Positions 1 to 50,975 of a stretch of DNA of 64,000 nt are shown here, piece after piece. A program made the position numbers and the translations under genes. The stretch's first letter is position 1. Every line of letters starts with the position of its first letter. Source of the DNA: a virus; IMG/VR virus record IMGVR_UViG_3300009149_000001, positions 1 to 64,000 of that record; one strand, written 5' to 3'. The notes below the pieces were generated by a model. The model saw nothing but the letters and a program-made list of their open reading frames with translations, did not search any database and was not told the origin of the DNA.

Positions 1-1
1 A

Positions 2-2274: not shown

Positions 2275-2705
2275 TTAAACTTACTTGGAAAAATATAGAT
2301 TATGCTGTAGATGAACTGTGTGAATATTTCGACTCATCTATGTATGATGCCGTCTATGGAATAGCCAATGGTGGCATTATCCCAGCAACTCTTGTTGCAA
2401 ACAGGTTAGGTATTAAAGTCATTCATACTATCCAGAAGAATGTGGAAATACGCAATCTGGAGTATAGTATGGAGAATTACAATTCAGTTTTAATTATAGA
2501 TGATATTAATGATACAGGTAAAACTTTAAGTAAATTTATGCATTTAGATAAATATCCTTACAGTGTAGCTACACTTTACCAACGAGATGGTACTAAATGG
2601 CCTAATGTGTTATATGGTGAGAATATCCCATTCTCAGATTGGGTTGAGTTTCCTTGGGAAAATTATGATAATGAAATACCGGAAAATAACAGCAGAACAA
2701 ATTAA
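2268..2705 (+). CDS. Type I purine phosphoribosyltransferase (Gpt-like)
   Basis: GIANGG, VLIIDDINDTGKTL PRPP-binding loop, WVEFPWE C-terminal motif. Confidence 0.9.
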   Translation: MVIKLTWKNIDYAVDELCEYFDSSMYDAVYGIANGGIIPATLVANRLGIKVIHTIQKNVEIRNLEYSMENYNSVLIIDDINDTGKTLSKFMHLDKYPYSVATLYQRDGTKWPNVLYGENIPFSDWVEFPWENYDNEIPENNSRTN

Positions 2706-5037
2706 TACTAAATATGGACAATCAAAACTTAGACTCTATGGAAGAGGTGAGGACGGATCAAAACAAGCTTTTGATATTGAAGGACTCCCAAGTTATTTCT
2801 ACGCTAGTGTTGAGCCCGTTTACGGTCCCGACCTTGCATCTAAAGTCAAATCAATTGAACCTGGATACACCAGTATCTTTGGCAAGGCTTTATGGAAAGT
2901 ATACACTTACAGTCCCTACGATATCAAGCTACTCGCTGAAGGAAAGGGTGCTCATGAAAGCGACATTCCATGGACTACCAGATGTTGTATTGACCTTAAG
3001 ATTACAGATGGATTTGAAATCTCTGATATGGGAAAACCCATACCAGTTGCAGACGTTGATCACATCAAGCCAAGAATCTGGGTCTTCGATGTGGAAATTA
3101 AGTCACCTAAGAGCATTATGCCCAGTTGGCAGACACCTGAGTATGAAACGGTGTGCGTAGTATTACATGACAATTACGATGATAAACAATATGTATTCAG
3201 TATTAAAGACCAAGACGAAAAAAGCATGTGGGATGATATCCTCAAGCTTATGGACGAAAAGGATCCCGACTATATCACGGGATGGAATATTGGATTTGAC
3301 GTATCTTGGATGTTCGCAAGACTTAGCTACCTCGGGATCGATCCTAATCGATTATCGAGCATGCGTAGAGCAAGAATGCGAGACTGGACTTCCCCAGGCG
3401 GACAAATCTTTACTAACTGCAACATTGCCGGACGAATTGTATTTGACGGATTGGAAGCATATAAAACTAAAAAGAATCCTTCTGGACAACTTAGCAGTTA
3501 TAACCTACACGCCATCGCCGAGAAAGAAACAGGGGATGCTTGGGAAGACTTGGGTCCACAAATTGAAACATCATGGGCAAAGGATCCTCAAGCTGTAATT
3601 GATTATTGTAAAAAGGATATTGAAGTTGAACAAAGAATTATTTCCAAAGAACGTCTCATTGAACAAGCCATTACACTTTCTAGACTTAGTGGTTGCTCTC
3701 CAGAGAAGACTGTTAAAAAAGAGGCTATTATCGATCATGCCATCCTCCTCAGAAGAGGAAATAGAATCTTGCCTTCCAAACGTAGAAGAGATGATGTTGA
3801 GGCAAACGTTAAAGGGGCAGTGGTACTTATGCCTGAACCTGGTATACATCGAAATATGGGTGTCTTTGACGCAGCTGCACTATACCCTTCGATTATCGCG
3901 GGCTTTAATATCTCACCGGAAACAAAAAGTAAAGATGGGACTATCCACATTGAAGATGAAGATGGAAATAAGTATTCTTTCATTGACCCTAAGATACAGG
4001 AAGGCATTATGCCGCAGGCAATTTCGGAGTTTAGGCAACTAAGAGAAGATGTTCGATCAAGAAAGTATATCGCAGAGGAACAGTTCGGACACGATAGCCC
4101 TGAATATGTGGCACTTGAAGAAGAAGATACAGCAGATAAATTCATTATCACCAGTTTTTATGGAGTTAATGGATTTTCCGGATTCAGACTTTTCGATCCT
4201 GACTGCGCGAATGCTATTACAGCAGTCGGACGTAAGATTATTATCGGACTTAAAAAACATCTTGGAGAGAATGGTTTTCCCGTCGAATACGGTGACACTG
4301 ATTCGGTATTCGTTTCAATGGGGGCACTCGCAAATGGTGACAGAGTTAGCGCTCTTATTGCAGAGTACTTGGATACAACATTACAAGCAATGGGCGTTAC
4401 CGATGTCGCAATTAAAGTCAAGTTCGAGAAGTTCTTTAAATGGTGCATATTCAAACGTCGACGAGTTAGCAAAGGCAAGTATGAACCGGTTAAGAAGAAG
4501 TATGTAGCACATATGACGTGGTCAGAAGGCCAAGAAACTGATTATATGTACATTAGAGGATTTGAAACTAGACGATCTGATGTAAGTCCAATTCTTAAAA
4601 AGACAATGTTGGAGTTCTTTGATATAATGAGACGTGGTACTTTTGATGAAGCTTTAAAATATTTAAAAACAGTAAAGGATAAGTTCAAAGAGTATTCCCC
4701 AATTGAATTAGGGATTCCTCGTCAGATACATGGGAAACATCCTAAGATTGAAAATCCTTGGCAGCGTGGAGTAAGATATGGAAAAGAGTTTTGGAATTTG
4801 CAATATGACCTCGAAACCGCACCTAGCTTACTCTATCTACGGGGTACTGGTCTCAATGAATCACTTGACTGTATCTGCATCCAAGCCCAACATGAATTAC
4901 CTAAGGGATGTGTTATTGACTATGAAATTATGTTTGAAAAAATTATACAGAAGAAGTTCGAACCACTTGTCGAAGCTATGGGTAAGAATTGGAGAAAAGA
5001 AATGGAAGGCTTGAAAACAATGGATGAATGGTTTTGA
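2671..5037 (+). CDS. polB: Family B DNA polymerase with 3'-5' exonuclease and C-terminal PIP box
   Basis: FDVE, GWNIGFD and DYCKKD exonuclease motifs; DAAALYPS, KFIITSFYG, YGDTDS, KKKY and RGFETRRSD polymerase motifs; C-terminal KTMDEWF. Confidence 0.97.
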   Translation: MKYRKITAEQINTKYGQSKLRLYGRGEDGSKQAFDIEGLPSYFYASVEPVYGPDLASKVKSIEPGYTSIFGKALWKVYTYSPYDIKLLAEGKGAHESDIPWTTRCCIDLKITDGFEISDMGKPIPVADVDHIKPRIWVFDVEIKSPKSIMPSWQTPEYETVCVVLHDNYDDKQYVFSIKDQDEKSMWDDILKLMDEKDPDYITGWNIGFDVSWMFARLSYLGIDPNRLSSMRRARMRDWTSPGGQIFTNCNIAGRIVFDGLEAYKTKKNPSGQLSSYNLHAIAEKETGDAWEDLGPQIETSWAKDPQAVIDYCKKDIEVEQRIISKERLIEQAITLSRLSGCSPEKTVKKEAIIDHAILLRRGNRILPSKRRRDDVEANVKGAVVLMPEPGIHRNMGVFDAAALYPSIIAGFNISPETKSKDGTIHIEDEDGNKYSFIDPKIQEGIMPQAISEFRQLREDVRSRKYIAEEQFGHDSPEYVALEEEDTADKFIITSFYGVNGFSGFRLFDPDCANAITAVGRKIIIGLKKHLGENGFPVEYGDTDSVFVSMGALANGDRVSALIAEYLDTTLQAMGVTDVAIKVKFEKFFKWCIFKRRRVSKGKYEPVKKKYVAHMTWSEGQETDYMYIRGFETRRSDVSPILKKTMLEFFDIMRRGTFDEALKYLKTVKDKFKEYSPIELGIPRQIHGKHPKIENPWQRGVRYGKEFWNLQYDLETAPSLLYLRGTGLNESLDCICIQAQHELPKGCVIDYEIMFEKIIQKKFEPLVEAMGKNWRKEMEGLKTMDEWF

Positions 5038-11903: not shown

Positions 11904-12572
11904 ATGAAAAAAGAATATGAACTGATAGTAGACAGTCGAGAAAAGAGTAATGCTACTGATGTATTAGATAAAGCAGGTATTGCATATACTAAAGAGGCTT
12001 TGCCTACTGGTGATTATATGATTAGAGTCCCTGAAGGAGAGATCACAGTGGAAAGAAAACAAATGACGGACTTTATAGGATCTTTAATGAGTGGAAGACT
12101 TGAAGAACAACTCCGTAGACTCAGTGAGCATAAAGTTCCTATCCTTGTTATCACTGGATCATTCTCTGACTACAAGCGCTTTGCTAAATTCAAACACTTT
12201 AGCCAGGAGCATGTCGAGGGTGCAATCGCAAGTTGTGTTGTCAAGTTCGGACTTAGAGCTGTTATATGGATTCAGTCAGCACAAGACAATCCGCACGCTG
12301 CAGGAATTAAGATTACGACTAAGATCTTACAAAAGATCGCTGAAGGTAAGATTGATCAAATGCCTGATAGGAAACTCAAACGATTTAAAACAGACGCTCC
12401 ATCATTGGACATCGTACGAATGATGTGCGGTGTAAGTGGTGAAACTGGTAAGAGATTACTAACTAATTTTGGTTGTATTAAGGGAATTATAAATGCAACA
12501 GATGAGGAATTACTCAAAGTTAAAGGAATGGGTAGAACTAGAATTGCCAAGTTAAGGAAGGTATCAGAATAA
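11904..12572 (+). CDS. XPF/ERCC4 structure-specific nuclease with (HhH)2, short form without helicase
   Basis: VDSRE, GDY, VERK..DF; C-terminal HhH pair with KVKGMG. Confidence 0.93.
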   Translation: MKKEYELIVDSREKSNATDVLDKAGIAYTKEALPTGDYMIRVPEGEITVERKQMTDFIGSLMSGRLEEQLRRLSEHKVPILVITGSFSDYKRFAKFKHFSQEHVEGAIASCVVKFGLRAVIWIQSAQDNPHAAGIKITTKILQKIAEGKIDQMPDRKLKRFKTDAPSLDIVRMMCGVSGETGKRLLTNFGCIKGIINATDEELLKVKGMGRTRIAKLRKVSE

Positions 12573-26487: not shown

Positions 26488-29400
26488 TTAGACTACTCCT
26501 GAGGCAAGCAATGTATCCTTATTACCTATTTCTTTATTTAACACCTCGGAGACAGCGGCGGCAATTTGAGCTGCGGTTTCCTCAGATGCTGAGCCTTCAA
26601 TTGTAATATTGATGCCTCCCACGTTAACACTCTGGGTTGCTTGAGCATTAGCAAGTGCTGCTAAGTCAATCTTTTCACCAAGGGCTTGGGCTAATAATTT
26701 ATTAACAGTTTGTTGAAGATCACCTATTTCACCAAAGGATGTACTAGTACCTCTGCCTGATATTGAAAAATTACCTTTTCTAGATACCTCTAATGTGGCT
26801 AATCTACGTGCAGCTTCAGTTCCCTCTAATGCAAGTTTAGTCAAGGCTACTGAAACATTACTAGATGCCTCTTGAGAATCAATTATGAAATTAGTTAATC
26901 GAGCAGTCTCTAATGTTAAGTTAGTAACTTCAGTTTGTTCCAGCTGTTGAGCTGCTGATAACATTTTAGTTCTTAAAGTGTTAAAGTCAACTTGAATAGT
27001 GTTTGCATCTGAAGCACCTTTCTGAATTTTAAAGCTAGTGTGCAAGTCAGTTGTTTTCTTTGTTAAAGCATCAGCTTGACCTAGATATTCATTTGACCAT
27101 TTTATAGTTCTGTCAACCCACACTCCTTTCAATTCTTCTAATCCTTTAACCATCTCATCAATTGTATCCCTTGGAATAATTTCACCTACTCCCTCACCAT
27201 TATCTGGTGCTGGTTGGAAGTTTGTACCATCAACATTAATGCCTGGTGATCCTTCTGGGAATCTAGATTCTATCTCAGGGGCTTCATTAGCTCCTCTTGC
27301 AAGTGCAGTGTTTTCAGAAGCTTGAGATGCACCTTTTAATACACCGGCAACAAGTTGTGCAATTCCTGGTGGTAGTATACTTGTAATAGCATCAATAAGA
27401 GTGTTTCCTAAGTTTTCTGTAACCGCAGTTATAAAGGCCTCTCTAATGGCATCACCAATTGCAGCACCTATAAGAGCTGCTTTAGTTACTATATTAGCAT
27501 TTTGACCTAATTCATCTAATGTTTTACCTGTTAATGCTGTTAAACCATCACCGCCAATAATTAATCCCAGAAATCCAGCTACTAATTCAGTGGCGATCTT
27601 TTCACCAACCTCCATAGCTTTTTCAAGATTACCTGTTACAACAGCTTCCCATAATTCACCCCAATCAGTTGCGGCAAATGCATCTTGCATATCTAAGATC
27701 CAATTAGATGCTGCCTCACCTAAAGCTAATCCCATAGCAACACCTGCGGCTTCCATACTAGCTGCAAATGCTTGGAACACTACAAGCATTGCATCAAGTC
27801 CCTCTAGATCTTCATCTTCAATTTTCTGTATAACTTGATCCCATTTTTTACTAAATTCATCCATTGCACCAACAGAGTCTGCCCACATTATAACAAGGAT
27901 TGCTGCTACAGCTGCAAGGGCTACAATCAATCCAGGTATATTGCCAGCGATTCCAGCAATTGCAAGACCTAAGGCAAGCATACCACCTGAGACTGCAATC
28001 TCAGCTGCTTGATCAGAATTATCAATCTCATCTGTGAATAGTACAAAGAGATTCTTTGCGGCAAACACAGCTATAACAATTCCTGCTATAACGGCAATAA
28101 TAGTTAGTAATGTAAATCTTAATCCTTTAGCTGCAACTTGTGTTCCAACCATAGCTCCAGTTGCACCACTGTTACCAGCACCTAGTACTAGGGTTAATTT
28201 AAGAAGCAATGATGTAAATGCTGCAACTACTTTACCAACGGATGCAATGATTAAAGTGGCAACAAGTAATCCTATAAAGCCAATGAAGAGTTTAATAAGC
28301 CCTGCCATAACACTCTTGTGTTCTCTGAAAAAGTCAGCTAATTTTTTAACTTGTTTTGCTAAAGTCTTTACAATAGGTAATAACTCTTTGCCTAAAACAT
28401 CACCCAATTCCAAGGCCATTTCTTGCAAGCCACCATCTCTAACTAGGGCTTGAACAGCTTCAGATACTCCTGCAATTGCTGGTGATAAGCCTTGTGTGAA
28501 TATAGTCTTTAATGCATTTAATGAATTAGTCATCTTCTTCATATTGGCTTGGGCAGTGTTACCTAAGATGCCTTCAAGGGCCGATGAATCACCTGCTCTA
28601 GCTGCTGCTACAGCCATATCAATTTCTTCCTCAGTTACTTGTGTTAATTTTGCTAATGCATCAGCTGCTCGAATCTCAAGCCCCATCTGGTCTTCTAAGA
28701 ATAATTTAAATGCATCAGATGAAGTACCAGCCTTATCTAAAGCTTTCTTAGTGTCTTTAAGGAAATCAATAAATGGTACTAAGTTACCATTATTATCAAG
28801 TAGTTTAATACCCATATCTTCCAAGACTGGGTTAAGTTTTAATGCATTATTTTTAAGTCCGAAGAACAACTGTCTGAGATTTCGACCTGCTGCACCTGCC
28901 CCTTGACCAAGTCTATTACCTAGGAGACCAAGCAATGCCCCTGTTTCTTCTACATCTAATCCAAAGTCTCGTGCTTGGGAGGATGCAAATCCAAAGGATC
29001 TAGAAAGTTCATCCAGTGTAATTGCTGAGGACTGGTTGACATTGATCATTACAGATGTTACACGGGCTGCCTCAGATAGACTAAGTCCAAAGTTGTTCAT
29101 AGTCTTAATTAAGGTCTTTGCTGATTCAGCTGAATCAACTTGCTCAATTGTCATTAATCTAAGTACTTGTTTTGTAACACCTATTAATTTATTACTCTTT
29201 TCTAATTCTGTACCAGTAAGATCTGTTGCCTTACCAATCTCTCGCATGGCATCTGATACTTCAGTGATACTAAAGATAGTACCACCTGCACCCATATCAA
29301 ATATAGCATCATTAAGATGTGATACAGCCATTGCTGACTCCTCTGTTTGACCTGAAAAGTCAATACCAGATTGTGCAATAGCCCTGGTCATTGAATCTAA

Positions 29401-29694
29401 TGAGTCAGCACCTTCTCTAATTATTTCACCGAAAAATCTCTTAATACTACCTAATACTCTTTGGGCAATGCCCTCCAAGAATGTAAACTGGAATGCCATG
29501 AAACCAACACGATCTGCTGATCTACTTAAAAATTTATTATTCTCTGCTAATGCTCCGTTCTGTTTACGGATGTTTTTCAACATAGAGCTAAAGCCCTTAT
29601 TGCCTATTACTGAAATTTTCTTTAGAGATTGCTCTACCTTGATGAGGTTATTGAGCCCCTTTAATGTTGCCCGTATATCTATATTGATTGCCAT
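26488..29694 (-). CDS. Tail tape measure protein
   Basis: 1068 aa, helical and Ala/Gly-rich; TP901-type core (FGLDVEETGALLG...AGRNLR); hydrophobic middle region. Confidence 0.93.
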   Translation of the reverse strand: MAINIDIRATLKGLNNLIKVEQSLKKISVIGNKGFSSMLKNIRKQNGALAENNKFLSRSADRVGFMAFQFTFLEGIAQRVLGSIKRFFGEIIREGADSLDSMTRAIAQSGIDFSGQTEESAMAVSHLNDAIFDMGAGGTIFSITEVSDAMREIGKATDLTGTELEKSNKLIGVTKQVLRLMTIEQVDSAESAKTLIKTMNNFGLSLSEAARVTSVMINVNQSSAITLDELSRSFGFASSQARDFGLDVEETGALLGLLGNRLGQGAGAAGRNLRQLFFGLKNNALKLNPVLEDMGIKLLDNNGNLVPFIDFLKDTKKALDKAGTSSDAFKLFLEDQMGLEIRAADALAKLTQVTEEEIDMAVAAARAGDSSALEGILGNTAQANMKKMTNSLNALKTIFTQGLSPAIAGVSEAVQALVRDGGLQEMALELGDVLGKELLPIVKTLAKQVKKLADFFREHKSVMAGLIKLFIGFIGLLVATLIIASVGKVVAAFTSLLLKLTLVLGAGNSGATGAMVGTQVAAKGLRFTLLTIIAVIAGIVIAVFAAKNLFVLFTDEIDNSDQAAEIAVSGGMLALGLAIAGIAGNIPGLIVALAAVAAILVIMWADSVGAMDEFSKKWDQVIQKIEDEDLEGLDAMLVVFQAFAASMEAAGVAMGLALGEAASNWILDMQDAFAATDWGELWEAVVTGNLEKAMEVGEKIATELVAGFLGLIIGGDGLTALTGKTLDELGQNANIVTKAALIGAAIGDAIREAFITAVTENLGNTLIDAITSILPPGIAQLVAGVLKGASQASENTALARGANEAPEIESRFPEGSPGINVDGTNFQPAPDNGEGVGEIIPRDTIDEMVKGLEELKGVWVDRTIKWSNEYLGQADALTKKTTDLHTSFKIQKGASDANTIQVDFNTLRTKMLSAAQQLEQTEVTNLTLETARLTNFIIDSQEASSNVSVALTKLALEGTEAARRLATLEVSRKGNFSISGRGTSTSFGEIGDLQQTVNKLLAQALGEKIDLAALANAQATQSVNVGGINITIEGSASEETAAQIAAAVSEVLNKEIGNKDTLLASGVV

Positions 29695-30349: not shown

Positions 30350-31324
30350 TTATCCCGTGAACTGAGCGTTGGTTTCTGCGTTTTCAACAACAATGATAAT
30401 TGGATCACCATTGGAGTCGTCTTCTGCAGTATAATCAACGGTCTGCACGTACCTTTCGATATTATCAGTAGGTAATTTATTGGTATCGAGTGAAATCTTT
30501 GGCAAGTTGGTATTAACGGCACGTGCTGCAATAGTTGCAGAGTGTGCGGCGTTCATCTCAAATTGCACTTCGGTTTCATCTATCCAATCAGTATAGCGTG
30601 TTGATGCATCATATAGTAAGTCAAATGATCCAGTTACTTCCAAGCCGGCTACTATGCCTGCTGAAAGGTATGCGGATCCTAGACAATATGCGTCATCAGC
30701 TACGTTGTTCTCGACTGAGATTGAAACTGATTCGAAACAATCTGTTCCGCCACCGTCAACTTGAGTCGTTACTTCAACTCCACCAAATGTTCTTTCCGTT
30801 GTTGAATATGCTGGAAAGAAGCTGGCTTCGCTATCTGTTTTTAAAGTACCTAAAGGAGAAAGTTCTCTTCTGAATATTACATCAAATGATGCACTAAATA
30901 CTTCAGAGGGAGAATAATCTAAGGTAAAGCCATTTACAATACCGCCCACATACTGATGTTCTTTTAAATCACGACCAATGGCTGCTCTAAAGAAAGGCAA
31001 TGTTTTGCCTTTGGTTACAGTGTGTTGATTGTGTGCTGTAGTTGGGGTATCGGTAACTGTTGTAGCTGTACCTAGTCCATAATAAAGTAAGGATGTTGCT
31101 CCACTAGCGAACACTGGAGTATCGATTGGGCCTCCGAATTTCTTTGGTCCTTGAATACGATTTCTCTTGGTTCTACCTGTGGAAGTCTGGGGATAAATAT
31201 ATTGATGATCGCCTGTGATGTCTTCACCTGATACATCGAGCTTATGGTCATTAACCCCAAAAGCGCCGAATGATTCACTAGTAAAGTCGGCTTTTGTTTC
31301 AAATTGGAAATATCTATCTACCAT
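30350..31324 (-). CDS. Major tail tube protein
   Basis: Position; beta-rich; SVSISVENN...EVTGSFDL. Confidence 0.85.
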   Translation of the reverse strand: MVDRYFQFETKADFTSESFGAFGVNDHKLDVSGEDITGDHQYIYPQTSTGRTKRNRIQGPKKFGGPIDTPVFASGATSLLYYGLGTATTVTDTPTTAHNQHTVTKGKTLPFFRAAIGRDLKEHQYVGGIVNGFTLDYSPSEVFSASFDVIFRRELSPLGTLKTDSEASFFPAYSTTERTFGGVEVTTQVDGGGTDCFESVSISVENNVADDAYCLGSAYLSAGIVAGLEVTGSFDLLYDASTRYTDWIDETEVQFEMNAAHSATIAARAVNTNLPKISLDTNKLPTDNIERYVQTVDYTAEDDSNGDPIIIVVENAETNAQFTG

Positions 31325-36717: not shown

Positions 36718-38259
36718 TCAGTTTCCACCACGTCTATCTCCTCGTGTGTTATTGTTACGATCTTTTTGACCTTGAGATTGTTGGTCACTAGTTGGTGAAT
36801 CTTGTTTCTCACCTTTAAGTCCTGCTGCTATATCTTTATTAGTTTGACCACTTTGGTCGGCTACGCCTGCACCTGGGTTTTGTGTATCTTCAATCCATGT
36901 CTTCAAGTCTTCTTCTTGTTCTTCAGTAAGTGGATCTTTACCCATTACAGCTCTAATTTCAGATGTAGTAAATGATTTAGTGACTTGCATAGTTGCTGCA
37001 ATCTTTGCTAATTCTGTTCTATCTTTATCTAAGATGAGTCTAGTTTTTAATACAAGTCGTTCTACAACTTCTTCTTTAATACCTGGTTCAATCATCTGAA
37101 CATGACGTCTAACTAGAGCTTCATATTCTTGTTTAATAGTATCAAGGTAAATTTCAGCACGAAGTGCTAAGAATGAGGATGCTTGGTTAAGTGATGTAAA
37201 ACCACCGCCACCTGAACCAGCCCCCATTAAATTAGGAGGAGTACCAGTTGGGCCACCAATTAGTTCGTTGATTTGATTAATGATAGGTGATGGGTCGTTA
37301 TAGTTAGAGCTCTTTGGTTCTACGTAGGTAATTTCGGTATTCATACCGGTAACAAAGCCTTGATCAGCTGATCTATATTGATTAACTGCAGCATATCCAT
37401 TAATGGCAGCCTCTGCTGCGGTTTTTGCGGCAGCTAGTTTTTCTGCATGAGTTCCTTGGAATTTAGATGGATCAAATGGTGTTAAGTCTAATTTATGGTG
37501 TTCTCTAGGCATTGCTCTATTTCTCCATACTTGGTCATTTTGAATCAAGATTTGTTTCCACATCAAGATACTAATCAAAGAATTAATAGGTGCTGTTGAC
37601 CAAACATTAAAAGTCCATCGTCCTAGGTTATCTCTAATCCAAGATCTTTTATTATCAAAGGATACATGGAATACTCTATCCCATCTTATAATTTGGGTTT
37701 TAACATCAATCTTACCATCTTGTTCATCTACTGCATAATATTTAGGATCACTTATAACAAAGTCTCCGCCAGTTTCACCAATTTGAGATCTCTTATCAAC
37801 TGCTGAGATAACAAACATTGGTAATGGTACAAGATCTTCAATTCCTTTACCGAATTTAATTTGATCTACGGCATCTCCGTACTTCCAGAGATCTTTTGTA
37901 TATCTATAAAATAATCGAGGACCATTAAGTTTTCTATGTAGAGCGTTTGCAACTTTCATTGCTTTTCTTTCTGATGGTGTTTCTACTTTATCATCAACAT
38001 CTTCAGGTCTTAATGTAAAGTCACCAACTGCTTTTTGAACCATGATTGCCATGAGTTCAATTGCTGAGAACAGTCTCTCGTCCCCATTTACTAGATTATC
38101 TGCAAGTGTATATCTGTCTTTTGAATTTCGTAAATCTTTGGCTTCGTTTAATCGCCCACCAATAATAGATGCTGCTGTGATTGCAATAGGCTCTGTGGGT
38201 TTAGTTGATCGATCTATAGGGTCTGTCCTAAATGCTGCTTTAATCCAATCTAAGTTCAT
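36718..38259 (-). CDS. Portal protein
   Basis: 513 aa after TerL; LWKYGDA, VFHVSF, TSEIRAVMGKDPL. Confidence 0.9.
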   Translation of the reverse strand: MNLDWIKAAFRTDPIDRSTKPTEPIAITAASIIGGRLNEAKDLRNSKDRYTLADNLVNGDERLFSAIELMAIMVQKAVGDFTLRPEDVDDKVETPSERKAMKVANALHRKLNGPRLFYRYTKDLWKYGDAVDQIKFGKGIEDLVPLPMFVISAVDKRSQIGETGGDFVISDPKYYAVDEQDGKIDVKTQIIRWDRVFHVSFDNKRSWIRDNLGRWTFNVWSTAPINSLISILMWKQILIQNDQVWRNRAMPREHHKLDLTPFDPSKFQGTHAEKLAAAKTAAEAAINGYAAVNQYRSADQGFVTGMNTEITYVEPKSSNYNDPSPIINQINELIGGPTGTPPNLMGAGSGGGGFTSLNQASSFLALRAEIYLDTIKQEYEALVRRHVQMIEPGIKEEVVERLVLKTRLILDKDRTELAKIAATMQVTKSFTTSEIRAVMGKDPLTEEQEEDLKTWIEDTQNPGAGVADQSGQTNKDIAAGLKGEKQDSPTSDQQSQGQKDRNNNTRGDRRGGN

Positions 38260-38261
38260 TT

Positions 38262-39821
38262 TTAAAATCTTCCCATATAATATGATTGCACACCATTAGT
38301 ACTCAAGCGTGCTTCCTCTTGTTCTCTACGTACAAACGATATAAGCTGTGCAGCGGTGTCAGCCATGTCTTTGGACCCAGTGCGAGGGTGATCCACTTTT
38401 TGATTCTTGATAAGGAGTAATTCGTAAAATTCTTTGAAGAGATATTTGGATCTGACGACAGTTGCACGTCCAAGGTATAAGTCGTTTCTTGCGATGATCC
38501 AATCTGACAAGTTGAGGACGTGGTGTTCTGTGCGGATTGAGTCCAATCGAACAAGATCAAGGAGGGTATTGTGCAGGTAAATGTCGTACACGTAGGAAGT
38601 GACAGGGAAGACGGCAATGAGTCGTTTGATGATGTCGGCAACGTCATTAGTATTTATTTCTTCGCCCTTGGCTGCCTTAAACACTGTGGAACCTATTATA
38701 CGGACAGAATCATCTTGAGCATGATATCCTATTGATAATCCAAAAGCATCGTTCTTAATGGCAGGATCTACTGCTATATACCAATCTGTGTAATCTGGGT
38801 AAAGTCTTAGATCTAAACGAGATTCGTCAATTAGGGGGATAAATCCTTCTCTTGATTTAGGATCTGGTTCTCCTATGAATAAGTTGGTTAAAAAGAAGTC
38901 TTTCTCGATCTCCTCAAGTATTGCAGGATTGAAGAATGCCTCCTGCTCTAATGATGGGTTCGCACCAAAATCCCTGTCGAACGAAATAGGGTCTCTCTTT
39001 CTCTCAGCTGCGAGCGTTACTTTATCCATGTTAGGATTAAGATCCCATGTTGCTTTCCAAATTGGAATGCACCAAGCCCATTTCTCTTCTACAGCTTGAG
39101 CATGCAATGTTGTGATGAAATCTCCTTTATATTGGGGGGATGAAATAGCAACTCTAACATTCTCATTCCATTTAGTAAAAGTACCTGTGGATTTGGATAA
39201 TTTGAAGTAAACCTCTTTTGGACCATTACGAGCTGAATTATCTTGAAATGATGAAACTTCGTCTGCAACAAAGGATTTAATTGTTCTTCCTACGTTACCG
39301 CCTGTACTGCTACCTAAAGCCTTTAAGGTAATGTATTTAGGGAATTTAATGGTGTTATAGGTAGCTGTAGGGTTTAATGACATAAAGTATGGTGAATCCA
39401 TGATAAGTTCCTTTCCTCTTCTAAAGACTGTATCTAAGGCCTGAGTTTCGTTAGGTGCTACATTAACACACATGATTTCAGAGTTCTTTGCAATACCATA
39501 GTGTTCTTGAGGATTATCTAGAAATTCCAACCGTGCGATCTCATATAGACTAATACATGCCGCAATTGTTGTTTTACCTCCTCTCATCCCTGAAACGAAA
39601 ACTAGTTCAGATTTAATACGTCGTCCAGTCTCATCAAACTTGTAAAATGAACGTAAAATCTCTTTTTGAGATTCCCAGAGTTCCATACCAACACCTGCTG
39701 GATCTTCAAAGAATGCTACTACATCATTTGACCATTCTAACTTCTTAATTAATTTTTCACCCAGTGACAGTTTCTCGTATAGAGAAACATCACAAGTAAT
39801 ATCAAGACGGGTTGTTGTCAA
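38262..39821 (-). CDS. terL: Terminase large subunit
   Basis: GMRGGKT Walker A, VADE Walker B, ISSP, AVDPAIKND, DHPRTGSKDMAD. Confidence 0.96.
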   Translation of the reverse strand: MTTTRLDITCDVSLYEKLSLGEKLIKKLEWSNDVVAFFEDPAGVGMELWESQKEILRSFYKFDETGRRIKSELVFVSGMRGGKTTIAACISLYEIARLEFLDNPQEHYGIAKNSEIMCVNVAPNETQALDTVFRRGKELIMDSPYFMSLNPTATYNTIKFPKYITLKALGSSTGGNVGRTIKSFVADEVSSFQDNSARNGPKEVYFKLSKSTGTFTKWNENVRVAISSPQYKGDFITTLHAQAVEEKWAWCIPIWKATWDLNPNMDKVTLAAERKRDPISFDRDFGANPSLEQEAFFNPAILEEIEKDFFLTNLFIGEPDPKSREGFIPLIDESRLDLRLYPDYTDWYIAVDPAIKNDAFGLSIGYHAQDDSVRIIGSTVFKAAKGEEINTNDVADIIKRLIAVFPVTSYVYDIYLHNTLLDLVRLDSIRTEHHVLNLSDWIIARNDLYLGRATVVRSKYLFKEFYELLLIKNQKVDHPRTGSKDMADTAAQLISFVRREQEEARLSTNGVQSYYMGRF

Positions 39822-46550: not shown

Positions 46551-46574
46551 CGGGGTATATAAACTTTTATTTTT

Positions 46575-46593
46575 AATAAGGTAATACCTTATT
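46575..46593. promoter_or_regulatory. Perfect 9-bp inverted repeat, candidate operator
   Basis: AATAAGGTA-A-TACCTTATT next to a minus-strand TATA box at about 46555-46565. Confidence 0.45.
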
Positions 46594-46636
46594 CTTTTAA
46601 GATTAAAATAAAAAAATAAAAAAAGATTATATTACC

Positions 46637-46906
46637 TTATTCTTTTAAGGTAAAATAATATTGTTTAGGTGAACCTACCCGAACTATAATATTTTGTTTT
46701 CTAAGTTCTGTTAACACATGGTTAATGTGTTGGGTACGTTTACCTAACTTCTCTGAAAAGTTTCTTTGTGTAAAACTTGTATTAGGGTATTCTTTGAATA
46801 CCTTAATCATAGTTTCTTTTAAACTATTTTCAGTAGTTCTAACGACCTGGTTTTCTAAATCTTTAAACTTAGAAACTAGGTCGTTGTCTTTTTGAACATT
46901 TGTCAT
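46637..46906 (-). CDS. wHTH protein, paralogue 1
   Basis: FTQ..F..KL.KRTQHINHVL..L.K..II.R.GS.KQYYF; own TATA motif at 46926-46947. Confidence 0.85.
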   Translation of the reverse strand: MTNVQKDNDLVSKFKDLENQVVRTTENSLKETMIKVFKEYPNTSFTQRNFSEKLGKRTQHINHVLTELRKQNIIVRVGSPKQYYFTLKE

Positions 46907-47246
46907 TAACTATAGTAAGTAATAAGGGTAATATAAACCGGTGTATTAACCCAACCTTCTTATAGTAAGTCGCGCGGCACCCATTATCTTTTCCTAATAT
47001 AAATGTTTCATCCATGTAGCCCCTCGCGCGTAGACACCCCCCTCAATACGACGGTCTATATAGCCCGGGGGGGTATAGAAGGTGAGGGTCTAGAGTCCCC
47101 TCCCACGGGTGCTTCTTTTTTGTCCCGGGTTTGGTTTCGGCTCCGATACTTTATCTAACCCGCGGTTCTATATGAATGGTAGTAACGGGAGCTTCGAGAC
47201 CCGGTCCAATACTACGGTATATATTAGGGAAGAGATTAGAGTAAGT

Positions 47247-47348
47247 ATGGAAGAGAAAGTTCAACTCACCGCAATGGAACAGTTCTTTGTGGGTGAGATA
47301 ATCGACATCGCGGTATTCGCGGAAGTTCAAATCGCCGAGGGCGATTAA
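47247..47348 (+). CDS. 33-aa acidic microprotein (cassette)
   Basis: Repeat motif TATA about 25 nt upstream; T12 tract after stop. Confidence 0.6.
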   Translation: MEEKVQLTAMEQFFVGEIIDIAVFAEVQIAEGD

Positions 47349-47415
47349 CTTTTTTTTTTTCTCTAAGTCCCCATGCAATACGACCATTCATATAACGAAA
47401 CAGATAAGATAGATT

Positions 47416-47574
47416 ATGAAATATCTCAACGATGTAGTAGCTTTTTATGAAGAGCTATTAAAAGATGTAGAAAAAGAAAAACTAGTAAGAGCAGTAGTAA
47501 TAGAAATGATAAATGATATTACTATTGAGAATGTTAGTTTTAAAAACTTAAGAAAAGATTTATTTAAAGAATAA
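47416..47574 (+). CDS. 52-aa microprotein (cassette)
   Basis: MKYLNDVVAFYEELL...; motif upstream, T tract downstream. Confidence 0.7.
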   Translation: MKYLNDVVAFYEELLKDVEKEKLVRAVVIEMINDITIENVSFKNLRKDLFKE

Positions 47575-47978
47575 ATTTTTTTTTTATTTTTTTTAGGTGT
47601 TTGTCGGGTGAAAAACTTTTGCCTCTGATTCTAATATCTACTTTCCCTTATATGAATGTTTAATCGGGTGAGGCCTTCGAAGACATGTCTTGTCCCCTCG
47701 CGGCGGGTGACTTGGACTTTTGTGAGTTGAGTGTGAGAAGGGGTGAGTGGAAGGTGACTCCACTCGTTTTCACCTTTTCCCCTTTTCGTGGTGAGGCGGC
47801 TGCTCGGGGTGAGAATCTGTGTCTCACCACGGTCCTAGGACACTTCCGTGTCGTCGCACTCCGTTCCTCATTAGGATCTATTATCTAATCACCGTACCGT
47901 TATATGAATGGTAGTATTGGAGTTGAGTCCGGGGCCTCCTTTCCTACCAGTTATATTAGGGAAGAGATAAGTGATAAT

Positions 47979-48113
47979 ATGACACAACGAATAAGTCAAA
48001 GTCGATATGAAGTAATAATCTTCGGAAAAGTCGATGAAACGTATAATGAAAAATATTATACGATAGGTGGAGTAAAGAATAGAATTCGAGAATTAGAAAA
48101 ACTCGATTTCTAA
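47979..48113 (+). CDS. 44-aa microprotein (cassette)
   Basis: MTQRISQSRYEV...; motif upstream, T tract downstream. Confidence 0.7.
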   Translation: MTQRISQSRYEVIIFGKVDETYNEKYYTIGGVKNRIRELEKLDF

Positions 48114-48252
48114 TTTTTTTTTAATTTTGTGAGGTGAGTTCGTTTAGCCACTGATTCTAATATGTACGAAGGATAATATATATGTTTCATCTGAGTCGGG
48201 GGCCGGAACTCCAATACTACCAGTTATATTAGGGTAGTGTGTAGTATAAGGT

Positions 48253-48429
48253 ATGAGAGAAAGATATGAGTTGAGTAGAGAACTCCTTCACACCCTTCAG
48301 GGTGTTTGGGATGAAGAGGGTGAGAGTTTCTCCTTCGTTCTCTTCGTACTCTCTCAACTCCAGAAGGAGGATAAGTTAAGTCTCCGACACGACGAAGAGA
48401 AGAACGAGTGGATCGTAAAGATTCCTTAA
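48253..48429 (+). CDS. 58-aa microprotein (cassette)
   Basis: MRERYELSRELL...; motif upstream, T tract downstream. Confidence 0.7.
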   Translation: MRERYELSRELLHTLQGVWDEEGESFSFVLFVLSQLQKEDKLSLRHDEEKNEWIVKIP

Positions 48430-48559
48430 CCTTTTTTTTTAATTTATCGGGTTGAGTTTTTTCGACTCTGATAGATAAGAAGATGAAAGGGTAATATAAA
48501 TGTTTCATCAGGGGAGCCCCCAGCCTACGGTTTATATAACCCAGGCGGTTAGTGTAAGT

Positions 48560-48751
48560 ATGAGAGATGAAAGCCTCCTATGGCAACTCAAGAAGCGAAA
48601 CGCAGCAAAGACACATTGTCTCCGCGGCCACGAGTTGCCAACACATCGCGATAGCCACGGCCGTCGCTTTTGTAAGAAGTGCGATTGTATCCGCGCCAAG
48701 CGAGCAAACGCAATCGTTCAAGCCAACAAGCACAAGTTGTGGTTTGAATAG
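48560..48751 (+). CDS. 63-aa zinc-binding microprotein (KTHC.RGH...CxxC)
   Basis: Motif usually found appended to HNH endonucleases; cassette structure. Confidence 0.72.
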   Translation: MRDESLLWQLKKRNAAKTHCLRGHELPTHRDSHGRRFCKKCDCIRAKRANAIVQANKHKLWFE

Positions 48752-48814
48752 TTTTTTTTTTTACCTAAGTCAGCAATTACTACCATTCATATAGAGCTAA
48801 TGTGTATGTATATT

Positions 48815-48961
48815 ATGACACAAATAACAGATGGAGAAGATCTTTTGTTCCTCGCAAAACTCGCACAGCGAGATGGCTGGAGCAAAACAAAATTCGCAAC
48901 TTTCGCAGGCATCCACCCGACGGCCGCTGGATACCTCTATGACACGGAGGCTATCGCATGA
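48815..48961 (+). CDS. 48-aa HTH-like microprotein (cassette)
   Basis: GWSKTKFATFAGIHP; motif upstream. Confidence 0.6.
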   Translation: MTQITDGEDLLFLAKLAQRDGWSKTKFATFAGIHPTAAGYLYDTEAIA

Positions 48962-49248
48962 GCGATGCGTGTGTCTTCGGAAAGTGTCGGAGGTGCGGAC
49001 AAGTGAAGTGCTCCCACGCGGACAAGACCATGGAGGGTGACCTATGACGTGGTATCATTGGCAAGGCAAGTGGTATTCAAAGTCCACACTGGACGTGAAT
49101 GGACTTAGCACGTTTGGGTTGTCGAGGTCACGAGTGTGATACTTGGTGGTTGGCTGCTCCTGGCACTCGTGGTTGGGGTTGCCGCCTGGATGGCGATGTG
49201 AACGGGTCCAATACTACCACTTATATTAGGGAAGGTGATAGTGATAGT

Positions 49249-49392
49249 ATGGTGAGAGCAACAATCACATTCACACTCGAGTATCCCAATGACGCACCTA
49301 TGTCAATTCTCGAAAGTGAAGCAGATGAAATGCAACAAGCACTCCAAGACGAGTACGAGGTTGAGGTAGACACTGAAGTCTGCTTCAACTAA
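49249..49392 (+). CDS. 47-aa acidic microprotein (cassette)
   Basis: MVRATITFTLEYP...; motif upstream, T tract downstream. Confidence 0.68.
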   Translation: MVRATITFTLEYPNDAPMSILESEADEMQQALQDEYEVEVDTEVCFN

Positions 49393-49593
49393 TTTTTTTC
49401 TATAGGCAAGCGCAACATTCATATTAGCCTTTCACCTTCTTATCTAGTTGAGTTAAATTTTTTTAAAAAAAAAAAATTCATAAAATCCTATAAGTCCCCA
49501 CTGGGCTTTCCCCGCGGAAAGGGCGGTGAGTCTAGTATATAAGGGGCGCCGCAATCCTACCAGTTATATAACGGAAGCGATATATTATATTTA

Positions 49594-49872
49594 ATGACAA
49601 ATCAAAAAGCAAGCAGCGACGAAAAAATCTTAGAATCTTTTAAAGATTTAAAAGATCAAGTAGTCGCTCCTAATGCAAATAGCTTAAGCGAAGTTATTAT
49701 GAAGGTATTCAAAGAATATCCTACTACTAGCTTCACTCAAGGAAATTTTGCAGCTAAGCTTTCTAAGAGAACGCAACATATAAATCATGTGTTAACAGAT
49801 CTTAGAAAGAAGAACCTTATTATAAGGGAAGGTTCTGCAAAACAATATTATTTCAGATTAAATTCTGAATAA
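49594..49872 (+). CDS. wHTH protein, paralogue 2
   Basis: Closely similar to 46637..46906 (KVFKEYP.TSFTQ, KRTQHINHVLT). Confidence 0.85.
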   Translation: MTNQKASSDEKILESFKDLKDQVVAPNANSLSEVIMKVFKEYPTTSFTQGNFAAKLSKRTQHINHVLTDLRKKNLIIREGSAKQYYFRLNSE

Positions 49873-50114
49873 TTTTTTTTTATTTTTTTTAAAGTCTCAA
49901 TCCGACCATTTATATTAGCCTTTGTGATAATAAGAGTGGCGTTTAGAAGTTTGTTCCGCGTTTCCCCCCGCATAGTAGTGGGTAATACCTTTATTCCTTA
50001 CTTTAATTAATTTTAATTGATAAAATCCTATAAGTCCGCCCCCGCCCGTCGCGTAGGACTTGGCGGAATGCCCGCATACGCGCTGCCCGCCGTGCCCGTG
50101 CTGCCCTTGCCCTT

Positions 50115-50975
50115 GGGGCGGGCACTACATAAGCAGTTTTGGTCGGCCCTAAAATGTATATTCTTTGGGCGGGCCCTACAATAGGGGGTTTTGGTGGACT
50201 AAAATGGGGCGGTCACTACAATAGAACTCTTCACCGGCCCTAAGGTTCCTTTGTCGGGCCCTACAATAGCAGTTTGGACGTGGCCAAAAGTGCTTTACCG
50301 TCCCCCTGACCGACCGGGTCACTATATAGCAAACACAAGACATATATGAACCACAGCAGGCCTATACGCAGCTATATAGAACTATATAGTTAAGGCGGGT
50401 AAAGTGTTCCACCGATTAGTCAGAGGAAAATATTTATATAGTAGTTTTGTTAATAATATGTAATGACAAATCAAGTAAAAGTTCCAATGGGTCCAGTTGA
50501 GGCAAAACCTGCAACTAAGACTATTGGGGCAAAGAAAGGCGTAGTAGAGTCATTTGAGGACTTAAAGGGACAACAAGTACCAACCGGTGCAGAAATGTCT
50601 ACAGGTTCTAATGGGGCTTTAATCGTCAAAATCTTTCAGGCATATCCTGACACTGTATTCACACAGAGACAGTTCGTGGACAGATTGGACATTTCAAATC
50701 CGTTCGTCAACCACATTCTACACGGGCTAATGAAAAAGGGCATTGTGAGCAGAGTCGGCAGTCCTAGAAAGTACTATTATTCATTAGTAGTCAAATCGGT
50801 CCAATAGGGCCTTTTTTTTATTTACGGTAGAGGGGGCACCTAGGGCATTAGTTATTCCTACTTAGCGGACACTACATAAGGGATTTTGGTGTGGCCAGAA
50901 TTCATTGTGGTTTATAGGGGCAACAGATGTCTAGTAAGGGCGAGCAATACAACAGCGATTTCATTGTGGCCAAAA
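50115..50975 (+). repeat. Iteron-like direct repeats CGG(G/T/A)C(A/C)CTACA(A)TA(A)G
   Basis: Copies at about 50123, 50174, 50214, 50259, 50320 and 50870, after a GC-rich TGCCC-repeat patch. Confidence 0.65.
50463..50807 (+). CDS. wHTH protein, paralogue 3
   Basis: YPDTVFTQ...VNHILHGL.KKGIVSRVGSPRKYYY. Confidence 0.85.
   Translation: MTNQVKVPMGPVEAKPATKTIGAKKGVVESFEDLKGQQVPTGAEMSTGSNGALIVKIFQAYPDTVFTQRQFVDRLDISNPFVNHILHGLMKKGIVSRVGSPRKYYYSLVVKSVQ

Follow-up and report, generated by a model that had tools for sequence, protein, structure and literature searches.

The 64-kb window analyzed here, the whole stretch of DNA under study, is part of a complete 74-kb genome (74,198 bp; GC content, 0.37) of an uncultured tailed virus, probably one infecting archaea. 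In it, two genes for winged-helix (wHTH) paralogs flank a 3-kb array of small open reading frames (ORFs) and repeated TATA elements of two types: type A, a 26-nt element, and type B, which joins a purine-rich BRE to a TATA box. Reading from left to right, with scores from a type A PWM, the array contains the following.

46637 to 46906, minus strand: wHTH1 (89 amino acids [aa]), winged-helix paralog at the left edge, 64% identical to wHTH2
46926 to 46951, minus strand: degenerate type A (score, 7.6) at leaderless distance from the ATG at 46906, the putative proximal promoter of wHTH1; the same in L205, a contig from a relative
46995 to 47012, minus strand: type B copy 1, predicted distal promoter in sense with wHTH1, kept upstream of the L205 wHTH gene
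47041 to 47066, plus strand: type A without an ORF (score, 20.1), no ATG at the usual distance
47165 to 47190, minus strand: type A without an ORF (score, 26.8), back to back with 47204 to 47229
47204 to 47360, plus strand: cassette 1, with type A at 47204 to 47229, a 33-aa ORF at 47247 to 47348, and a hairpin with T11
47373 to 47594, plus strand: cassette 2, with type A, a 52-aa ORF at 47416 to 47574 (GC content, 0.23), and a hairpin with T10AT8
47566 to 47680, minus strand: type B module 2, spanning about 100 nt between an oligo-T run and the TATA at 47648 to 47665, facing cassette 2
47666 to 47896, no strand: ORF-free, GC-rich unit (GC content, 0.54; rich in GGTGAG) downstream of the minus-strand type A at 47897 to 47922
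47897 to 47922, minus strand: type A without an ORF (best score, 37.6), back to back with 47936 to 47961
47936 to 48122, plus strand: cassette 3, with type A, a 44-aa ORF at 47979 to 48113, and a hairpin with T9
48105 to 48205, minus strand: type B module 3, TATA at 48174 to 48191, converging on cassette 3 and paired back to back with the type A of cassette 4
48209 to 48440, plus strand: cassette 4, with type A, a 58-aa ORF at 48253 to 48429, and T9
48423 to 48522, minus strand: type B module 4, TATA at 48492 to 48509, near-palindromic, with purine-rich flanks on both sides
48517 to 48762, plus strand: cassette 5, with type A, a 63-aa ORF at 48560 to 48751, and T11
48772 to 49201, plus strand: cassette 6, with type A, first ORF at 48815, no T tract
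49206 to 49399, plus strand: cassette 7, with type A, a 47-aa ORF at 49249 to 49392, and a strong hairpin with T7
49404 to 49476, no strand: type B module 5, copy at 49404 to 49429, in inverted orientation compared with module 4, with T7 and A12 after it
49549 to 49890, plus strand: cassette 8, with type A (score, 36.1), wHTH2 (92 aa) at 49594 to 49872, and a hairpin with T9AT8
49895 to 49920, plus strand: type A without an ORF at the right edge (score, 29.1), its downstream sequence partly conserved in L208, another contig from a relative

The eight ORFs headed by type A encode 33 to 92 aa. Apart from the two wHTH proteins and the 63-aa ORF of cassette 5 (ORF63), which carries a zinc-finger word of the HNH endonuclease kind (phrog_826; E value, 2.6e-5), the small proteins of the array gave no family match. 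wHTH1 had weak matches to HTH domains of the MarR/TrmB/Crp type, and its family, with 17 members, weakly matched generic MarR/TrmB-type winged helices and no other family. In cassette 6, four tiny ORFs of 48, 29, 31, and 21 aa overlap, and the 21-aa product is hydrophobic. The GC content shifts between neighboring cassettes from 0.23 to 0.61, compared with 0.37 for the genome. The type A copies at 47041 to 47066 and 47165 to 47190 face each other across a GC-rich unit of 150 nt (GC content, 0.57), and the ORF-free unit at 47666 to 47896 gave no folding signal (z, −1.3 and −0.8). A separate array of 39-nt repeats adjoins the region at 50114 to 50974.

The PWM, built from the type A copies, located 12 copies in the 74,198-bp genome, 10 on the plus strand and 2 on the minus strand, all within 47041 to 49920. 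Matches in the array scored 20 to 38 and the next best in the genome scored 12; shuffled genomes gave 3 to 15 matches scoring above 6. A degenerate 14-nt core pattern had seven matches, only in the array, and its reversed control had none. Together with five type B copies and the wHTH1 promoter (46926 to 46951, minus strand), the type A copies make 18 TATA elements, in agreement with the original prediction of about 18. That prediction was right that the unit is repeated, but its length of about 22 bp was too short: the promoter element spans 26 nt, and the repeat extends to about 50 nt when the stretch to the ATG is included. Type A is made of an upstream word, CCAATAC, a word at the BRE position, (T/G)ACC(A/G), and a TATA octamer; in full, the BRE position reads C(T/G)ACC(A/G)N, with C, A, and C invariant. 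There is no purine-rich BRE directly 5′ of the type A TATA, and the canonical purine/adenine positions, absent here, are present in type B, which bears out the earlier remark that the type A BRE is unusual.

The archaeal TATA box lies at about −30 to −23, and transcription of leaderless mRNAs starts at the ATG or adjoining it. The first base of the type A octamer stands 29 nt before the ATG for the ORFs at 47247, 47416, 47979, 48560, 48815, and 49249, 30 nt for that at 48253, and 31 nt for that at 49594, and the eight ORF starts previously said to follow a TATA are correct in every coordinate. From this distance, transcription is predicted to start at the ATG or 1 to 2 nt before it, which puts the octamer at about −29 to −22 from the ATG and centers it about 26 nt upstream of the predicted start in all eight units. 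The ATG is preceded by a T in seven of the eight, and no Shine-Dalgarno word was found before any of the eight ATGs, as the leaderless archaeal spacing proposed earlier would have it. On this basis, the type A copies are probably promoters of archaeal geometry whose transcripts would be leaderless. A pure gene-promoter reading leaves four copies unexplained, those without an ORF (47041 and 49895 on the plus strand; 47190 and 47922 on the minus strand).

A rival reading takes the host to be a bacterium and the repeats to be promoters read by a polymerase or sigma factor specific to the phage. Type A is somewhat T7-class-like, in that its AATAC(G/T)AC ... TATA ... GGGAAGAG pattern recalls the T7 promoter; hairpins occur at all seven terminators, and the nearest TerL relatives in the phage collection come from bacterial phages, at 23 to 24% identity. 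However, the spacing is 3 nt beyond that of the T7 class, the GGGAAG word is present in only four or five copies, and the 20-nt gap between AT box and ATG, which has no Shine-Dalgarno word, suits leaderless starts of archaea but not bacterial starts. A Pfam search of the seven largest ORFs found no RNA polymerase, single-subunit or other, and the three ORFs that matched families matched other kinds. The genome yielded no sigma factor, TBP, or TFB, and sigma-70-type promoters were not enriched in it (13 found versus 9.4 expected). The virus also encodes a short ERCC4+HhH nuclease, for which the closest cluster of cellular proteins is archaeal, and this gene and the MptE-like one point to archaea. 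We consider a bacterial host very unlikely.

Alternatively, type A might be the normal promoter consensus of an archaeal host, in which case nothing about it would be virus-specific and the array would be just small genes in a run, with a standard promoter before each. The TATA octamer and its spacing are indeed standard for archaea. Moreover, a word reading AC-N-AC-(A/G)-G beside the TATA box is kept in distant relatives (contig L210) and could reflect a BRE variant of a host lineage. Yet the type A word is missing from the type B copies and from the other promoters of this virus at leaderless distance (50433, 56315, and 60651, with 17727 on the minus strand); these carry other words, which are purine-rich at 50433 and in type B. 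The element is private to the array, although leaderless-type promoters occur elsewhere in the genome. CCAATAC lies upstream of the reach of TFB, which points to an added operator. Four single matches, all in bacteria, were found in 185,579 species genomes for a strict 21-nt form of type A, weak evidence in that this form covers only 3 of the 12 copies. On balance, we regard an ordinary host consensus as improbable.

The 3′ ends of the cassettes are as regular as their promoters. Six of the seven runs of nine or more T in the genome lie within 47350 to 49883, and a hairpin stands directly against the T run at each of the seven cassette ends that have one (z, −1.8 to −6.7, with −2.25 for cassette 1, −4.0 for cassette 3, and −6.7 for cassette 7). 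The expectation that most of the ORFs end in a T tract therefore holds for seven of the eight units. Type A follows a terminator within 15 to 25 nt at 47350, 48752, and 49873, and does so in L205 and L208 as well; the short composite form consists of hairpin, T run, a TAAGTC word, and type A promoter. Terminators made of a hairpin and a T run are more typical of bacteria, which counts against an archaeal reading of the cassettes.

Type B copies 1 to 4 have the purine-rich word GA(T/A)(G/T)AAACA at the BRE position, and copy 5 carries GCGCAACA on the plus strand. Judged by these words, the type B elements would be ordinary strong BRE/TATA promoters. Beyond the array, a purine-rich BRE-like word with a TATA was found only at 50427, the putative wHTH3 promoter, and at 25242, probably a chance site. 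The type B module is a portable unit of about 100 nt beside a terminator; modules 2 to 5 belong to a six-member alignment, and modules 4 and 5 form an inverted repeat (85% over 40 nt). Module 2 is 80% identical over 110 nt to positions 969 to 1076 of L205, where it stands behind a different gene, and module 5 is kept in L207 and L208 and, in a diverged form, in L210 to L213. Four of the five type B copies aim back into the 3′ ends of cassettes 2, 3, 4, and 7 and would probably give rise to antisense or convergent transcripts damping those genes. All four back-to-back pairs listed in the original prediction exist, with a minus-strand partner of type A in two (47165 to 47190 and 47897 to 47922) and of type B in the others (48174 to 48191 and 48492 to 48509).

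Short metagenome contigs from relatives, found in runs labeled soil, seawater, and permafrost, share parts of the array and combine the same elements with other genes, in another order and orientation. L205 has five type A copies in 1,981 nt, and L207 and L208 each have one or two together with a type B module. The more distant L210 shares the layout but has other upstream words. The L205 counterpart of cassette 1 keeps the promoter and the 5′ end, with a diverged protein, and the cassette 3 protein is conserved in L205. Compared with L208, identity is about 93% over 48535 to 48773 (94.8% in ORF63, or 182 of 192 nt), is lost at the type A promoter at 48772 to 48797, and is regained at the T tract at 49393. 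It is 80 to 95% across the intergenic stretch at 49411 to 49570 and about 70% at 49571 to 49610, just before and across the wHTH2 start codon, and it drops within wHTH2; the 115 nt upstream of wHTH2 are about 93% identical and the protein is 48% identical. L208 is without cassette 7, and about 280 nt of other sequence replaces cassette 6. In metagenome assemblies of soil runs at 80% likeness, where some joints have short flanks, one X4 contig has 280 nt in place of 48772 to 49411 (joint, 48771/49412), one 428-nt contig from each of two runs has 15 nt in place of 48123 to 48214 and so lacks type B module 3 (joint, 48122/48215), and one contig from run X2 joins 48168 to 48487, which indicates a relative without cassette 4.

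The identity breakpoints fall on promoters and terminators. The original prediction held that the repeats could let cassettes be shuffled, a proposal that invariant cassette content among relatives would have contradicted; both content and order vary, with breakpoints at shared control sequences. Because the control sequences are kept whereas the intervening genes vary, homologous recombination among the copies would add, delete, replace, and invert cassettes in related viruses. A dedicated site-specific mover that recombines at the repeat, either resembling an integron or consisting of a miniature mobile element, might also explain why cassettes and type B modules are present, absent, or inverted from one relative to another and why the breakpoints lie at repeats. 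But the breakpoints lie within long shared stretches, as homologous recombination predicts, the units carry their own promoters, which integron cassettes do not, and none of the ORFs scanned near the array was seen to encode an integrase or transposase; such a mover seems to us highly improbable.

The repeats might also act mainly by binding protein, as an operator or decoy array (a sponge) for wHTH or TBP/TFB, or as part of a locus for replication or partition. TATA elements are very dense here, at 18 in 3 kb, four type A copies have no ORF, three wHTH paralogs bracket the region, and the 39-nt repeats adjoin it. Pure binding would need neither the fixed 29 to 31 nt from octamer to ATG in eight copies nor the terminator that follows, however, and it would not call for the conservation of orthologous small proteins (the 63-aa ORF differs at four amino acids, and the 44-aa ORF is conserved). 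We give this explanation little chance.

The reading that we favor, and consider likely, is that the array consists of virus-specific promoter-terminator cassettes for single accessory genes, probably early and probably wHTH controlled, shuffled by recombination at shared control sequences. The region would then be a hyperplastic zone of accessory genes in a tailed virus of archaea. Its building blocks would be composite regulatory cassettes, in each of which a lineage-specific type A promoter drives one tiny leaderless gene that ends in a hairpin and oligo-T terminator. One regulator class would most likely set all type A promoters together, and the flanking wHTH1 and wHTH2 are the best candidates because the wHTH2 gene itself has a type A promoter. 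The link between wHTH type and type A comes from a few short contigs and is confounded by relatedness, which weakens this reading. By analogy with other viruses, the cassette genes probably have early anti-host or anti-defense roles.

Without the BRE purines, type A may be weak or silent unless a helper is present. It is conceivable, if rather unlikely, that general host factors alone cannot use type A at all, so that it needs a dedicated reader, and that antisense transcription from type B switches the cassettes off; the virus would then run a two-layer switch on top of archaeal basal transcription. A private word would replace the BRE position, with CCAATAC as a second word just upstream, and the reader would be one of several host TFB paralogs or a wHTH1 or wHTH2 activator that recruits TFB/TBP. 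The eight cassettes would fire only with that reader present.

In practical terms, the array singles out eight to eleven tiny genes of an uncultured and probably archaeal tailed virus, and type A offers a natural test case of how far an archaeal promoter may depart from the canonical BRE while remaining a promoter, and of who reads it. Several parts of the arrangement resemble known systems. The OOP antisense RNA of phage lambda comes from a short promoter just 3′ of a gene and directed into its 3′ end; four type B copies are placed likewise with respect to cassettes 2, 3, 4, and 7, an analogy of layout only.

T4-type phages have promoter-early stem-loop (PeSL) cassettes in hyperplastic regions (Arbiol et al. 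2010, PMC2839356; Comeau et al. 2014, PMC4122927), and the shuffling proposed in the original prediction corresponds to the model described for them. Like PeSLs, the array repeats terminator-plus-promoter composites, a stem-loop followed by a promoter, between small, nonessential ORFs without assigned function, and in both, insertions, deletions, and replacements between relatives map to the repeats. PeSL promoters, however, are early, bacterial, and sigma-70-like, whereas those of the array are TATA-type and predicted to be leaderless, and the two show no sequence relationship. Mini-circles and promoter and terminator activity have been demonstrated for PeSLs; those of the array are predicted from sequence. 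Because its promoters are archaeal in type and not sigma-70-like, the array is an analog of the PeSLs and not a member, and PeSL-like shuffling at shared control sequences would extend to this virus group.

The original prediction did not recognize the layout from any described archaeal virus, but comparable ones occur in HGTV-1, HF1/HF2, and rudi-, lipothrix-, bicauda-, and fuselloviruses. In HGTV-1, a haloarchaeal tailed virus, a TATA-plus-inverted-repeat motif precedes most left-end ORFs, and its authors likened the motif to PeSLs and suggested that it acts in regulation and shuffling (Sencilo et al. 2013, as summarized in PMC3950731). By that description, both viruses are tailed archaeal viruses in which a conserved TATA motif recurs upstream of many small ORFs within a single genome region; HGTV-1 differs in its halophile host lineage and in its motif, and no antisense module figures in the summary. 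HF2 and other haloferacalesviruses have class I and II intergenic repeats (Russ, Pfeiffer and Dyall-Smith 2021, PMC8707807) that, like type A, are private to the virus, are absent from the rest of the genome, contain AT-rich promoter motifs, and are conserved among relatives; HF2 also has long counter-transcripts. The HF2 repeats differ in that they head longer units at fixed positions, while the array has single tiny genes in variable order, and their promoter activity was shown with a reporter gene, while that of the array is predicted.

Viruses of Sulfolobales place virus-specific early regulatory sequences before anti-defense genes, repeated regulatory motifs precede small genes in rudi-, lipothrix-, bicauda-, and fuselloviruses, and the gene for the wHTH protein Aca8 shares its upstream early motif with the genes of which Aca8 is the predicted repressor (Bhoobalan-Chitty et al. 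2024, PMC11065993). In the array, too, small single genes share a core-promoter regulatory sequence that is far better conserved than the genes themselves. Type A heads eight single-gene or micro-operon units, and wHTH2 carries it as Aca8 carries its motif, a precedent for the reading that we favor. Those motifs contain a strong purine-rich BRE, which type A lacks, and early expression and two anti-defense functions were demonstrated for them, whereas the array is known from its sequence. By analogy with SIRV2 and T4, the array genes would be the likeliest place for anti-host or anti-defense functions in this virus. The layout itself is therefore already known from other viruses, and what is new in the array is its noncanonical BRE position and its convergent type B modules.

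A single promoter-like element, type A, recurs throughout the array at 46926-49923 and is private to this part of the genome. A weight matrix built from the 26-nt type A copies found 12 sites scoring 20 to 38 in the whole genome, all between 47041 and 49920, and the next best site scored 12. The element begins with CCAATAC and continues with C(T/G)ACC(A/G); after one free base comes the TATA octamer, T(T/C)ATAT(A/T). Within type A, the bases C, A and C are invariant. With five copies of a second element, type B, in which a purine-rich BRE-like word adjoins the TATA, and the promoter of the winged-helix gene wHTH1, the elements number 18. This matches the first count, and the repeat array as originally observed is thus borne out.

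Eight type A copies precede an ATG, and the ORFs opened there (cassettes 1 to 8, plus strand) encode 33, 52, 44, 58, 63, 48, 47, and 92 amino acids. The distance from the first base of the octamer to the ATG is 29 nt in six of these units, 30 nt in one, and 31 nt in one. The base before the ATG is a T in seven of the eight, and none has a Shine-Dalgarno word between octamer and ATG. An octamer about 29 to 31 nt before the ATG, with no Shine-Dalgarno word, is the look of a leaderless archaeal mRNA, and on sequence grounds the eight units look like promoters of that geometry. In cassette 6 (48815-49201), four tiny ORFs (48, 29, 31, and 21 amino acids) overlap to form a micro-operon; the second carries two CxxC-like pairs, and the last encodes a hydrophobic peptide. 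The whole genome has seven T runs of at least 9, and all but one fall in the array. Within 47350-49890, a hairpin abuts the T run at all seven cassette ends, with z scores of -1.8 to -6.7. The archaeal terminator usually described is a bare oligo-T; these have a stem-loop in addition to their long T run.

Other explanations of the repeat were considered. It could encode a shared N-terminal peptide, as several ATGs have an open frame before them; this was rejected on account of a TAG 6 nt before the ATG at 47416, copies that have no ORF, and copies on both strands. Four copies (47204-47229, 47936-47961, 48209-48234, and 49206-49231) resemble T7 class III promoters, running AATAC-G/T-AC, TATA, and GGGAAGAG, and are 3 nt longer. 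That spacing is too long for T7-class promoters, and since no single-subunit RNA polymerase was found among the Pfam matches of the largest ORFs, we attribute the resemblance to chance. A dyad operator, CCAATA ... TATTAGG, was rejected because only four or five copies have the dyad. The only Rfam match, to RAGATH-19 inside the wHTH1 coding sequence, reached 31.8 bits, well below the gathering score of 85.6, and was likewise put down to chance.

Four type A copies have no ORF. Two of them face each other across 47067-47164, and one reads into the 230-nt GC-rich unit at 47666-47896. The ORF-free GC-rich units, with a GC content of 0.54 to 0.57 in a genome of 0.37, are as follows.

47013-47164: ORF-free GC-rich unit
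47666-47896: ORF-free GC-rich unit

On the plus strand, the word GGTGAG is locally nine-fold in excess, with 11 of the genome's 25 copies in 4.9% of its length, and these units contain a large part of that excess. GGTGAG is part of the Shine-Dalgarno sequence. In the one unit examined (47666-47876), neither strand was found to fold better than shuffles. The ORF-free units may be what is left of lost cassettes, or they may represent binding sites or small RNAs.

All five type B copies are predicted to be able to fire leftward, one of them in sense with wHTH1. The other four are each aimed into the 3' end of a cassette (2, 3, 4, or 7), with a predicted start 3 to 52 nt past the stop codon, and we read them as putative antisense or convergent promoters. 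Those at 48174 and 48492 have a second purine-rich flank on the opposite side and could fire both ways. The four back-to-back pairs of the original prediction are all present, the minus partners being two type A and two type B copies. The type B unit at 49404-49476 has diverged counterparts in four relatives (L210 to L213); the unit and these counterparts keep a GTTGAG word and a T run right at the predicted start.

A metagenome scan for relatives returned nine contigs, mostly short. On the 1,981-nt contig L205, type A occurs five times. Cassettes 1 and 3 have counterparts there, which lie, with a wHTH gene, in a different order and partly on the opposite strand; L205 also has an extra minus-strand cassette that is missing from the window. 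Over 110 nt, the type B module behind cassette 2 shares 80% identity with an L205 module that lies behind a different gene, and six type B modules can be aligned. Contig L208 (1,324 nt) is collinear with 48535-50187. It matches cassette 5 at 182 of 192 nt, and identity breaks at the type A promoter at 48772-48797. Beyond the break, its counterpart of cassette 6 lacks the middle ORFs; what remains is a first ORF that has diverged, matching at just 20 of 48 amino acids, and a 20-amino-acid hydrophobic peptide. Cassette 7 is missing. Identity resumes at the T run at 49393, is 80 to 95% over a 160-nt intergenic stretch to 49570 and about 70% around the start codon, and drops within wHTH2 (44 of 92 amino acids). 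Three further rearrangements are seen when contigs from four public runs are aligned to the array. The type B module at 48123-48214 is swapped for 15 nt in contigs of two runs, cassette 4 is lost where 48168 joins 48487, and 48772-49411 is swapped for 280 nt. Neighboring cassettes range in GC content from 0.23 to 0.61, around the genome value of 0.37. The distant relative L210 shares the architecture: its single-gene cassettes are divergent, TAAGTC comes after a T run, and its wHTH genes lie in tandem. Its upstream words differ from those of the window.

The units thus differ among relatives by whole-cassette events; control sequences are conserved, the intervening genes are variable, and the changes are bounded by control sequences. 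The original interpretation holds in two respects, namely, a promoter class with a private word at a fixed distance from the ATG, and shuffling, as seen in the breakpoints of relatives at control sequences. Searches further afield returned little. The weight matrix found no second array in about 2 Mb of collected loci, exact searches of IMG/VR with the type A core gave single scattered matches only, and a strict 21-nt type A pattern gave four single matches, all bacterial, in 185,579 genomes. Protein-guided searches with wHTH2 and the wHTH family alignment found nothing in IMG/VR or species genomes, and a search with the large terminase (TerL) found two short contigs, neither reaching the array region. 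The gene for a 947-amino-acid fiber led to hundreds of loci, and L130, the best of the candidates looked at, lacks synteny.

The window covers bases 1-64000 of its parent IMG/VR record, which is 74,198 bp long, is rated complete, and has a 98-bp repeat at its ends. Genes are on the plus strand except between about 15 and 46.9 kb, where they are on the minus strand, and the array sits exactly at the point of divergence. Marker genes are listed below.

2587-5037: family B DNA polymerase (PolB)
11904-12572: short (222-amino-acid) XPF-like nuclease, ERCC4 plus helix-hairpin-helix; nearest atlas cellular cluster archaeal, most others viral
26488-29694, minus strand: tape measure
30350-31324, minus strand: tail tube
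36718-38259, minus strand: portal
38262-39821, minus strand: large terminase (TerL)

The terminase, portal, tail tube, and tape measure genes indicate a tailed virus, for which an archaeal host is favored on several lines of genomic evidence. No sigma factor, TBP, or TFB was found encoded in the genome, sigma-70-type promoters are not enriched in the region, and no RNA polymerase domain appears among the Pfam matches of the seven largest ORFs, four of which (513 to 947 amino acids) match no family. The ERCC4 nuclease, an MptE-like gene, and the archaeal promoter geometry point the same way. TerL is only 23 to 24% identical to bacterial phages, and atlas look-ups with PolB and the ERCC4 nuclease gave no host leads beyond mixed or archaeal ones.

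Three wHTH genes, paralogues of one another by sequence comparison, lie in or beside the array.

46637-46906, minus strand: wHTH1
49594-49872, plus strand: wHTH2 (the ORF of cassette 8)
50463-50807, plus strand: wHTH3

A database search gave a family of 17 members, the closest homologues being P0003, P0005, P0006, and P0008. The wHTH genes of the window start directly at leaderless distance from the promoter; in two relatives the start at that distance belongs to a short ORF upstream of the wHTH gene (L205 680-733 and L210 1138-1193), and the L205 wHTH start has a GGTGA-type ribosome-binding word. Host RNA polymerase with TBP and TFB would start at the ATGs, and the common type A word would place all units under joint control by one factor, which would be wHTH1 and/or wHTH2. 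The type A copy of wHTH2 is among the best (score 36.1), and the region upstream of this gene is far better conserved than the protein. A weak hint is that type A was seen in four of six records having a wHTH with a KRTQH(I/V)N helix versus none of four with the SNPF type only, a small sample confounded by relatedness.

The purine and adenine of the archaeal BRE matter most for TFB binding, and the BRE position of type A is without them, so its promoter perhaps needs a helper. The same feature underlies a stronger reading, that general host factors alone cannot use type A, which would have a dedicated reader (a TFB paralogue or wHTH1/2) and type B as an antisense off-switch; we consider this unlikely. 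In the preferred reading, the cassette genes are probably early and host-directed, by analogy with other viruses alone (PMC11065993, PMC2839356).

Other sequences around the wHTH genes were noted. Just past the wHTH1 terminator, a purine-rich BRE-like word and TATA box (46553-46562, minus strand) are likely the promoter of the long structural-gene operon. The near-palindrome AAGGTAATACCTT occurs just outside both array ends (46577-46593, 46630-46650, and 49981-49995), close to where wHTH1 and wHTH2 end, and also in the contigs L208 and L209; it may serve as an operator or form a terminator hairpin. On either side of wHTH3, at 50114-50288 and 50861-50974, lie a total of six copies of a repeat of about 39 nt, parts of which recur in L206 to L208; these copies may be origin iterons or wHTH3 operators.

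The layout had been thought new to archaeal viruses, which is wrong, as three comparable cases are known. In HGTV-1, a conserved motif of a TATA plus an inverted repeat precedes most left-end ORFs, and its authors likened it to the promoter-early stem-loops (PeSLs) of T4-type phages (PMC3950731). The intergenic repeats of HF2 are virus-private, genus-conserved, and proven promoters, with long counter-transcripts present (PMC8707807). Sulfolobales viruses have virus-specific regulatory sequences common to early single genes, including the gene for the wHTH protein Aca8 (PMC11065993). PeSLs themselves combine a terminator with a promoter and bring about modular shuffling (PMC2839356, PMC4122927). 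The array appears to work like all four systems and to be a sequence relative of none, HGTV-1 being compared by description only. Because it differs from PeSLs in not having sigma-70 promoters, and because type A does not have the strong BRE of the Sulfolobales anti-defense motifs, we regard the array as an analogue found in a new virus lineage.
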